Shown here one piece after another: positions 29,126-31,287 of a stretch of DNA of 64,000 nt. A program made the translations under genes and the position numbers. Position 1 is the stretch's first letter. Every line of letters begins with the position of its first letter. A model generated the notes under the pieces. It saw only the letters and a program-made list of their open reading frames with translations, made no database searches and was not told the origin of the DNA. The stretch comes from Candidatus Hodarchaeota archaeon (GTDB taxonomy: Archaea; Asgardarchaeota; Lokiarchaeia; Sigyniarchaeales; SOKP01), in the NCBI GenBank assembly GCA_048886685.1, contig JBHLKM010000007.1, positions 111,190-175,189 on the forward strand, written 5' to 3'.

Positions 29126-29656
29126 ATGCCAGAAAATAAAGTAAAAAAATATTTCCAACTTATTGAAGCATGGGCATGGTGTGATATCTGTGAAGATATG
29201 ATTTCATTGAATATAGATAAAAACGAGATTATTAGTGGTCTTGAAATGGGTATTTATACAAAAGAATATAAGCATGCCAATCCTAATCCTGATCTAGAAG
29301 ACACAGATGATGTTTCTGGACAAGAACATACGATTTATGTCTATATCAATGATAATTATGACATTACAGGAGTTAAATCCTTTTTTGGTGAATCTCCTAC
29401 TACTGAAGAAATTGGAGCAGAAACAGCAGAAGCGGGTGGTGAAGTGAGAATTCCCGTAGTTGTAAAGGAAATTCCTCCTATGGCTGTACAGTTAGGAATG
29501 CTTACAAAGGACCAATTTAAAGTCCTTAAAATTTGTGATGGTATGAATACAATTGAGGAAGTAGCTTCAATTGCTCAAATAAGCGAAAATGAAATTGAAA
29601 AAATGATGGACCAGCTCCGAAAAAAAGGATTAGTAAGAGTCATTAAAAGAACTTAA
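29126..29656 (+). CDS. Putative Zn-binding (CxxC..H..H) domain + C-terminal winged-helix protein
   Basis: WCDIC...YKH...EHTIYVYIND, then LKICDGMNTIEEVA...LRKKGLV wHTH. Confidence 0.7.
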   Translation: MPENKVKKYFQLIEAWAWCDICEDMISLNIDKNEIISGLEMGIYTKEYKHANPNPDLEDTDDVSGQEHTIYVYINDNYDITGVKSFFGESPTTEEIGAETAEAGGEVRIPVVVKEIPPMAVQLGMLTKDQFKVLKICDGMNTIEEVASIAQISENEIEKMMDQLRKKGLVRVIKRT

Positions 29657-29715
29657 AATCTTTATAAATAGTTAAAGTTTAGCTGAGATAATCAAATTTC
29701 AAAAGGTATTTCTAT

Positions 29716-30270
29716 CTACTTGTTAAAGTTCCGAGTATTGTAAACCAGTTCAATTTGTCTATTTAATATTGAAGTTAGAAAATAAAAAGCTTCATTTACA
29801 TTAAGACCTGTTTTTGAAGATGTTGTGAAATATTTTAGAAATTTATGTTTTTCCATTAGATTTAAGATTTCTTCTTCTCTAACAAGAATTTTATCTTCCA
29901 AATCGGCTTTTGTTCCTATTAAAACCATTGGTATAGTTTTGTTTTGTTGTTCTATAAGATCAACCCAATCATCAATCCTTTCTAAAAATCGAGGATTTTT
30001 TGTTAAATCAAACAATACTAATGCGCCCTTAGCACCCATAACAAAACTATCTAAGAGAAATCTAAAGCGCTCTTGTCCAGAAAAATCCCAGATTTGAAGT
30101 GAAGTAGAAGCACCAGTCGCAAAAGTAAGGACTTTATTGAAAATCTCAACACCAATCGTCATCTTAGTATCAAACTTAAATCGATTTTCTATATATCTAT
30201 GCAAGAGAGTAGTCTTTCCAACTCCACCATCCCCCGCAACGATAATTTTAAATGTAGATTTAGCTGGCAT
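29716..30270 (-). CDS. Rab/Ras-like small GTPase
   Basis: GDGGVGKT, MTIG (switch I), WDFSGQERF, GTKAD, TSSKTG. No C-terminal prenylation Cys. Confidence 0.93.
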   Translation of the reverse strand: MPAKSTFKIIVAGDGGVGKTTLLHRYIENRFKFDTKMTIGVEIFNKVLTFATGASTSLQIWDFSGQERFRFLLDSFVMGAKGALVLFDLTKNPRFLERIDDWVDLIEQQNKTIPMVLIGTKADLEDKILVREEEILNLMEKHKFLKYFTTSSKTGLNVNEAFYFLTSILNRQIELVYNTRNFNK

Positions 30271-31287
30271 TTAGTTGGACCTCTGCTTATTAACTTTTTT
30301 TCGTATTATTTTTAATTCTTTTTCACTTTCAAAAAGTAAATCCAAATGTGCAAAAGCCATTTCATTTGAGATTTTTCCTTTTTTTAAATTACTTGCTATC
30401 TCATTTAGTAAATAAACGGGCGGAAAATATTGAAGATGAAGATCATATAATATCGAAATATATTTTTCACCATTAATCTGAAAATTGAAAATGATATCAT
30501 TAACACACGAGCCACTTAGCGTTTCTAAATCTAGTAATGTTCTTACTTTTTTCAAAGATACTGGTCCGTTGCTTAGAAGAGACATTATTTCTTTATATTC
30601 CTTAGAAATTAGTATCTGCAAACCTTGTTTTATTGCCAAAGTTAAGTCACCTTGACCAGAAAAAATTGTCTCTTTAAAATCTTGTAAAGTCTCATTTGCT
30701 TTACTTAAATAAGATTCTTTAATTGGGGAATATTTTGGATTGTTTGAGATTTTTTCAATAGTCTGCTTATGTGGGATTTTGAAAATTATGAAATCTCTTA
30801 CTAAAAAATAACATTCAAAAAAAGTTTCATTTAACCACCGAGATTTGACTAAATTTGTTTTAATGAGTGGTAAAATCACTAATTGAAAATTATGTTCTTC
30901 AAATTCAGGATATTCAGAAATAAGCCTTTCAACTAATTCATTCGAATTAATTGGTCCCTCAGATAAAATTTTTAAAACTTCAGTACGAATTGGTTCGTTA
31001 TAAATGGATGCTAATGCCTCATATTCTGACATATGGATAAGAGATGTGAATTCTTTCGCTTTCTTTTTAGCTGTTAATAAATCTTGATAAACAATTTCAT
31101 CTCTCACAGAAAGATTTGCATCTAAAAACAGCATGATCGCATGTTCCGGTTTACCATGTATGAATATATATTCAAATGGAAAATATTTCTTATCATCTAC
31201 AATATTAACTGGGATTTCTAAATCAATTACTTTTTTACAGAATGAACAATGCACTCTAACTTTTTTCATTTTTACCACATTCTTCAC
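30271..31287 (-). CDS. Putative Zn-binding (CxxC..H..H) domain + tandem winged-helix-like protein
   Basis: HCSFC...FIHG.PEHAIMLFLDAN; IRTEVLKILSEGPIN and EIMSLLSNGPVS repeats. The start may be ATG 31269. Confidence 0.65.
   Translation of the reverse strand: MKNVVKMKKVRVHCSFCKKVIDLEIPVNIVDDKKYFPFEYIFIHGKPEHAIMLFLDANLSVRDEIVYQDLLTAKKKAKEFTSLIHMSEYEALASIYNEPIRTEVLKILSEGPINSNELVERLISEYPEFEEHNFQLVILPLIKTNLVKSRWLNETFFECYFLVRDFIIFKIPHKQTIEKISNNPKYSPIKESYLSKANETLQDFKETIFSGQGDLTLAIKQGLQILISKEYKEIMSLLSNGPVSLKKVRTLLDLETLSGSCVNDIIFNFQINGEKYISILYDLHLQYFPPVYLLNEIASNLKKGKISNEMAFAHLDLLFESEKELKIIRKKVNKQRSN

Follow-up and report, generated by a model that had tools for sequence, protein, structure and literature searches.

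Asgard archaea encode dozens of eukaryote-like small GTPases, the regulators and effectors of which are mostly unknown. The layout of Asgard genomes offers little guidance, as a GTPase gene is seldom paired there with the gene of a GTPase-activating protein (GAP) or a guanine nucleotide exchange factor (GEF) (Tran et al., 2024, PMC10933270). Here we describe a stretch of 64,000 nucleotides (referred to as the window) from a Lokiarchaeal (Promethearchaeota) genome (G000; 47 contigs, 4.4 Mb), in which two proteins, A and B, encoded on either side of a small GTPase gene (GTPase 1), share a so far unnamed N-terminal zinc-ribbon-like module that recurs next to small GTPase genes across Asgard genomes. 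The features of the locus are the following:

29126-29656, + strand: protein A (176 amino acids, aa), an open reading frame (ORF) with zinc module, linker and winged helix; AlphaFold2 (AF2) model with a predicted local distance difference test (pLDDT) score of 83.4
29159-29383, + strand: predicted zinc module of A (residues ~12-86), aligned to the family profile by hhalign with 97.6% probability
29441-29653, + strand: winged helix of A (residues ~106-176)
30271-31287, - strand: protein B (338 aa), an ORF with zinc module and two winged-helix modules linked via long helices; AF2 pLDDT 92.9
31087-31269, - strand: predicted zinc module of B (residues ~7-67), seed of the family profile
29716-30270, - strand: GTPase 1, a Rab/Ras-like small GTPase (184 aa); Pfam Ras 2.7e-40, Roc 1.4e-28
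31288-34662, - strand: large surface protein (1124 aa); its translation shows a signal peptide, a single membrane helix at the C-terminus and a short basic tail
39392-39928, - strand: GTPase 2, a small GTPase ORF (orthologs at 70-76% identity), ancestral convergent neighbour of A within the genus
28426-28749, - strand: EF-1beta, conserved divergent neighbour of A; Pfam EF1_GNE 3.8e-14

GTPase 1 belongs to the Ras superfamily, scoring 138 bits against the Pfam Ras model (cut-off 21.6), and its translation contains the G1 motif GDGGVGKTT and the G3 motif WDFSGQE. As noted in the original prediction, which was made from the letters of the window alone, A and B flank this GTPase gene from opposite strands: A is convergent with it at a distance of 59 base pairs (bp), while B lies directly upstream on the same strand, its end coinciding exactly with the start of GTPase 1. 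The gene of the surface protein in turn abuts the listed start of B exactly. This listed start (31278-31287) is a GTG codon, three codons upstream of the MVK start found in the database copy and in the orthologs; with the shorter form of B, 9 nucleotides rather than none separate it from the surface-protein gene.

A shared N-terminal module in A and B

Direct comparison of the two proteins does not reveal their relationship. A BLASTP alignment of A with B reaches only an E-value of 14 for the relevant region, which is not significant, hhalign of two shallow ortholog alignments returns a probability of 3.9%, and a profile built from the N-terminus of A finds only A itself in the genome (next match at E 1.5). 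The N-terminal profile of B, however, picks up paralogs within the same genome and, when rebuilt from B and five of these paralogs with A excluded, it recovers residues ~19-80 of A at E 1.1e-3 among 28,521 six-frame ORFs, with the next noise at 0.044. One further round yields 13 members separated from the remainder by a clean gap (2.5e-12 versus 0.026). With a profile of 93 metagenome and own-genome sequences, in which A was never included, A ranks right behind 12 members at E 1.1e-3, and when this profile is compared by hhalign with an alignment of the A family (140 sequences with identities down to 43%), the probability is 97.6% and the E-value 3.9e-12 across 51 columns, A having an acidic insert of 13 residues relative to the family. 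As the direct comparison fails while deep profiles free of A recover it, the homology is supported via intermediates: A and B share a real, homologous and hitherto unnamed zinc-ribbon-like module of ~55 residues. The domain proposed in the original prediction thus exists, the motifs quoted for it being present and profiles, hhalign and structural models agreeing, and the profile hidden Markov models (HMMs) grown from the N-terminus of B and its paralogs recover a family with members across Asgard genomes.

The module follows the pattern C-x2-C ... H/C-x(1-17)-H ... D-x5-R. In the alignment of the 13 copies encoded in the genome of the window, the CxxC pair is followed by ~25 residues, a His or Cys, 1-17 residues, a His, a hydrophobic strand and the motif D-x-N-x-x-V-R-G. 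Conservation among the 93 members is ~80-90% for each of these positions: the two Cys, the His, the Asp and the Arg. Protein A carries the CxxC at residues 19 and 22 and the two His at 50 and 68, separated by an acidic insert of ~13-17 residues, and these four ligands (C19, C22, H50, H68) are invariant throughout the order to which the genome belongs. In B, the CxxC lies at residues 14 and 17 and the His at 44 and 49, followed by the motif LFLDANLSVR; the four corresponding residues are at least 90% conserved. The third ligand is a His in six of the 13 own-genome copies, including A and B, and a Cys in the other seven. The label C2H2 used in the original prediction is therefore too narrow for the family, as about half of the paralogs carry Cys in place of His at this position. 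In one own-genome paralog of 104 aa (L004:4069-4293, - strand), Gly replaces the first Cys of the CxxC, the rest of the module being retained.

Differing predicted folds would have refuted the original prediction; the AF2 models of A and B, however, agree in the order of their secondary structure elements (strand-strand-short helix-strand-strand-strand) and in the positions of the ligands. In the model of A, the strands span residues 12-19, 24-31, 44-50, 68-74 and 80-86 and the helix residues 32-39; in that of B (335-aa numbering), the strands span 4-11, 16-23, 35-41, 46-52 and 58-64 and the helix 24-29. In both models, the CxxC occupies the hairpin turn that links strands 1 and 2, the first His terminates strand 3 and the second begins strand 4, and the nearly invariant Asp and Arg of the D-x5-R motif fall in strands 4 and 5. 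The CxxC and the H/C...H pair across the loop between strands 3 and 4 would form the metal site, a putative zinc site.

As had also been predicted, both proteins continue into winged-helix domains, with a three-helix bundle and a beta wing in their C-terminal parts. Winged helices dominate the matches when Foldseek and VIA-align are run on the whole models, so that these matches concern the winged helices rather than the zinc module; for B, Foldseek returns ArsR/SmtB, Phr and PF0095-type regulators at E-values of at least 0.013, with a probability of up to 1.0 on the winged helix.

Family range and relation to known domains

Searches with the domain profile return 1,325 clusters at E-values up to 1e-3, in proteins of 145-2000 aa. 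The genome of the window encodes 13 copies, three further genomes of the same order 10, 12 and 7, and 12 genomes of other Asgard families between 0 and 8; overall, of the 15 Asgard genomes besides that of the window to which this profile was applied, 13 encode the module. Named members carry Asgard labels, with the exception of one labelled Korarchaeota, so that the restriction to Asgard archaea proposed in the original prediction is not strict. The proposed association with GTPases holds at the level of gene neighbourhood (see below).

The module is combined with V4R (four proteins), ubiquitin-like (two), helix-turn-helix (HTH) and TPR domains and in one case with a Ras GTPase: in the metagenome protein P0214 (267 aa), it occupies residues 30-79 and is fused directly to a Ras-family GTPase domain at residues 101-263. 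The most abundant form in the Lokiarchaeal data, filling the top 120 of the 1,325 matches, is a subfamily of ~219 aa with a C-E-H third ligand and an unannotated C-terminal part (for example L001:2732-3394, + strand, and L002:4003-4683, - strand), relatives of which (229-248 aa) bear V4R. In paralogs of ~198 aa (L007:4014-4607, - strand; L011:4016-4609, + strand; L076:2591-3175, + strand), the module stands C-terminally behind a domain of ~125 aa, which in the L007 paralog has a weak Longin match (E 0.034); at L076, a GTPase gene converges on the module gene with a gap of 17 bp. The protein P0196 (739 aa, 13 stretches) is not a member as judged by the domain profile.

In agreement with the earlier statement that the domain cannot be assigned to a named family, no Pfam model covers the module in A, B, 10 own-genome paralogs or 49 metagenome members, no NCBIfam model and no PDB sequence matches it, and the ESM Atlas returns nothing above chance level for it. 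We likewise found no description of the module in the literature searched.

The module was compared with several domains it resembles in part. TackOD1 (PF18551) is a zinc-ribbon output domain of TACK and Asgard signalling proteins; its best score in five genomes is 18.7 bits, below the cut-off of 32 bits, and none of its matches falls at a locus of the family. Zinc ribbons of the TFIIB/TFIIS type and Pfam Zn_ribbon group are similar in being small strand-rich units with a CxxC at a beta-hairpin turn and a second ligand pair from the next hairpin region. The module differs from them in its second knuckle, which is H/C-x(1-17)-H over the loop between strands 3 and 4 rather than CxxC, in the helix following strand 2 and in a fifth strand bearing the conserved Arg; none of the Zn_ribbon Pfam models matches A, B or the paralogs scanned. 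A classical C2H2 finger requires C-x2-4-C-x12-H-x3-5-H with helical His, while in the module the second Cys is separated from the first His by 26-27 residues, the models put both His at the ends of strands, and no zf-C2H2 match is obtained. The order of elements in the AF2 models also resembles that of longin domains (beta-beta-alpha-beta-beta-beta-alpha-alpha), and the Pfam scan finds no Longin or Robl match in A or B; we tentatively set this reading aside because the putative metal site would have to join the loop between strands 1 and 2 to that between strands 3 and 4, which in a longin sheet are found at opposite ends. The ArfGAP zinc finger and Mss4/Dss4, eukaryotic regulators that are likewise small and stabilised by zinc, have Arf or Rab GTPases as their direct targets; their sites are of the C4 type and their folds probably differ from that of the module, and neither appears in the Pfam hmmscan lists of A, B and the paralogs.

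The nearest known functional analogue is ArvC/OapC, a Zn-ribbon protein encoded in a small-GTPase operon, arvA-arvB-arvC, that Euryarchaeota and DPANN possess (Mills et al., 2024, PMC10927574); there, too, the gene of an archaeal zinc-binding protein is located just downstream of a small GTPase gene. From a 1.65-fold increase in vesicle output on knockout of ArvC, its authors proposed that it regulates the GTPase as a GAP, and ArfGAP is also cited in the same study, according to which ArvA homologs are rare in Asgard archaea (8 of 183 genomes) (PMC10927574). No sequence relation between ArvC/OapC and the module family was found: PF09845 (DUF2072; cut-off 23 bits) is absent from the hmmscan lists (E up to 1-5) of A, B and eight paralogs, and its genome-wide matches in five Asgard genomes are weak and all at loci outside the family. 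Unlike in the arv operon, no ArvB/DUF2073 partner was seen at the window locus, though no search for DUF2073 was run, and the neighbours are a surface protein and a Rab-like GTPase.

Genomic linkage to small GTPases and history of the locus

To evaluate how often module genes are located next to small GTPase genes, adjacency was compared by a binomial test with an expected background of ~3.5%; in the genome of the window, ~3.1% of the sequence lies within 500 bp of any of 80 Ras-like ORFs. Across all loci, 18 of 77 are GTPase-adjacent (P 1e-10), which bears out the enrichment that the original prediction had named as a check; the adjacent cases lie in nine GTDB families. The signal is strongest outside the order of the window, where a Ras-like ORF directly abuts 13 of 35 loci from 10 genomes (P ~8e-11) and where the density of Ras genes is similar to that in the genome of the window. 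Ten of these 13 loci (L077, L096, L098, L105, L110, L112, L116, L120, L121 and L124) are co-directional: the GTPase gene comes first, and the module gene either overlaps it or begins no more than 60 bp behind it. Several of the GTPase-adjacent module genes encode proteins of only 70-135 aa (71 aa at L120), and outside the Lokiarchaeal order the module is most often found in a small protein (70-290 aa), the gene of which comes right after that of a Ras-superfamily GTPase. At L113:307-3198 (G333, from another Asgard family), a module gene lies 55 bp beyond a tandem array of three Ras-like GTPase genes, with which it is convergent.

Within the order of the window, protein A is near-universal and single-copy, with full-length orthologs in 130 of 132, 1 of 1, 9 of 14 and 4 of 4 genomes of the four families, and forms more than 300 clusters at 77-100% identity. 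Its conserved context consists of MutL, the divergent EF-1beta gene and then A. EF-1beta adjoins A in 16 of the 20 loci chosen to be diverse within the order, and likewise in 26 of the 29 loci from the same genus (L013-L041). In 19 of these 29 loci, as well as in L058 (G184, same genus), an ortholog of GTPase 2 is directly convergent with A. In the window, by comparison, A and GTPase 2 are separated by a minus-strand block of ~9.7 kb (29716-39391), which contains GTPase 1, B, the surface protein and the ORFs 35090-36226, 36630-37364 and 37273-39216. Since GTPase 2 converges directly on A in most genomes of the genus, this block looks like a lineage-specific insertion or rearrangement. An interpretation of A as the dedicated partner of GTPase 1 was discarded, since neither B nor GTPase 1 accompanies A at 49 other loci and the old neighbour of A is GTPase 2.

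Full-length B is rare: apart from the genome of the window, it occurs in two species representatives (32-36% identity) and in metagenome relatives, and it forms 12 close clusters. The surface protein is encoded directly upstream of B in all four loci with full-length B (the window, L062, L063 and L066), while a GTPase gene follows B only in close relatives, the order surface protein, B, GTPase recurring in the metagenome locus L066 with an ortholog of GTPase 1 (2e-87). The window thus allows conserved linkages to be separated from recent ones around A and B: the pairing of the surface protein with B, of EF-1beta with A and of A with GTPase 2 is conserved, whereas the position of A beside GTPase 1 is recent. 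The C-terminal part of B (~240 aa, two winged helices and long helices) recurs, behind a different N-terminus of ~120 aa, in proteins of ~375 aa (G000:C20:10300-11106 at L064 and G000:C6:168776-169507 at L065) that are present in nearly every genome of the order.

Possible role of the module

As the module lies next to small-GTPase genes far above chance across Asgard archaea, it points to candidate GTPase partners. We favour, with moderate confidence, the interpretation that it is a GTPase-docking module, serving as an adaptor for effector or regulator functions and possibly as a GAP, which in the order of the window has been expanded and joined to output domains. The module would dock on small GTPases, and its conserved Arg could supply GAP activity, which makes a GAP role worth testing. 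In the order of the window, the module has multiplied to 7-13 copies per genome, an expansion that would have attached it to diverse output domains. B would couple GTPase 1 to its two winged helices and perhaps also link it to the cytoplasmic tail of the surface protein encoded upstream, while A would be a housekeeping paralog fixed beside EF-1beta and MutL and formerly convergent with GTPase 2.

A more far-reaching version, which we put forward only tentatively, is that the module could mark partners dedicated to small GTPases, a class not yet described and present throughout the Asgard archaea. These would dock on the switch regions, with the Arg as a possible catalytic finger, and the fusions (winged helix, V4R, ubiquitin-like, TPR and possibly longin-like) would wire individual GTPases to specific outputs. 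If this were true, it would provide the first genome-readable map assigning regulators to Asgard GTPases. The presence of the module directly behind GTPase genes in most Asgard lineages, and once in a fusion, provides concrete pairs for binding, GAP and GEF tests, and its fusions hint at what the GTPases might control.

Several observations weigh against a role of the module with GTPases. In the genome of the window, only A and B are near a Ras-like ORF and the remaining 11 copies are over 13 kb away from the closest one, so that 1 of 12 loci is GTPase-linked, about the chance rate; of the 29 loci in the three further genomes of the order, 3 have a GTPase gene within ~300 bp. The wider conserved neighbourhood of A consists of translation and repair genes, and the more distant B orthologs at L062 and L063 keep the surface protein and have no GTPase at E <1e-4. 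The P values given above overstate the case, as loci from related genomes are not independent. Finally, the adjacent GTPases form at least three or four groups in a quick tree rather than one clade, their branches requiring at least 4 origins; the module is therefore not tied to a single GTPase branch, and no single co-evolving pair of module and GTPase is evident.

The strongest alternative to the docking interpretation, although in our estimation a rather unlikely one, is that transcription regulators use the module, stabilised by zinc, for dimerisation or for binding nucleic acids and that its adjacency reflects local transcriptional control of the GTPase genes rather than contact between the proteins. 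The winged-helix domains of A, B and P0218 fit such a function, and so does the suggestion that the GTPase genes of MK-D1, which generally lie outside operons with known regulators, are controlled by specific transcription factors (Tran et al., 2024, PMC10933270). However, several of the GTPase-adjacent forms are stand-alone modules of 70-135 aa without an HTH, the partner domains Ras, V4R, ubiquitin-like and TPR are not DNA-binding, and the order of GTPase followed by module, with overlapping or near-touching ORFs, looks like co-translation of partners.

It appears less probable still that the module serves generally as a structural zinc cap or as a scaffold for interactions, without being tied to GTPases in particular. 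The linkage would then be synteny inherited from a few old operons, and the broader, real use of the module would be seen in the Lokiarchaeal expansion. Such a role would account for the remoteness of most own-genome copies from Ras-like genes, for the great diversity of the partner domains and for the most abundant, ~219-aa subfamily, which shows no GTPase context in the loci examined. Yet adjacency in nine GTDB families and to GTPases of several groups, together with the Ras fusion in P0214, is hard to explain by the inertia of one operon. That A and B are unrelated zinc knuckles which merely converged is very improbable: the failure of BLASTP, of the shallow hhalign comparison and of the profile of A to find any paralog would be in line with it, but the deep alignment matches across the whole module, A is the top non-member for profiles built without it, the models share their predicted topology, and deep-branching A orthologs retain the VRG motif of the family, one of them with a short, B-like loop between the two His.
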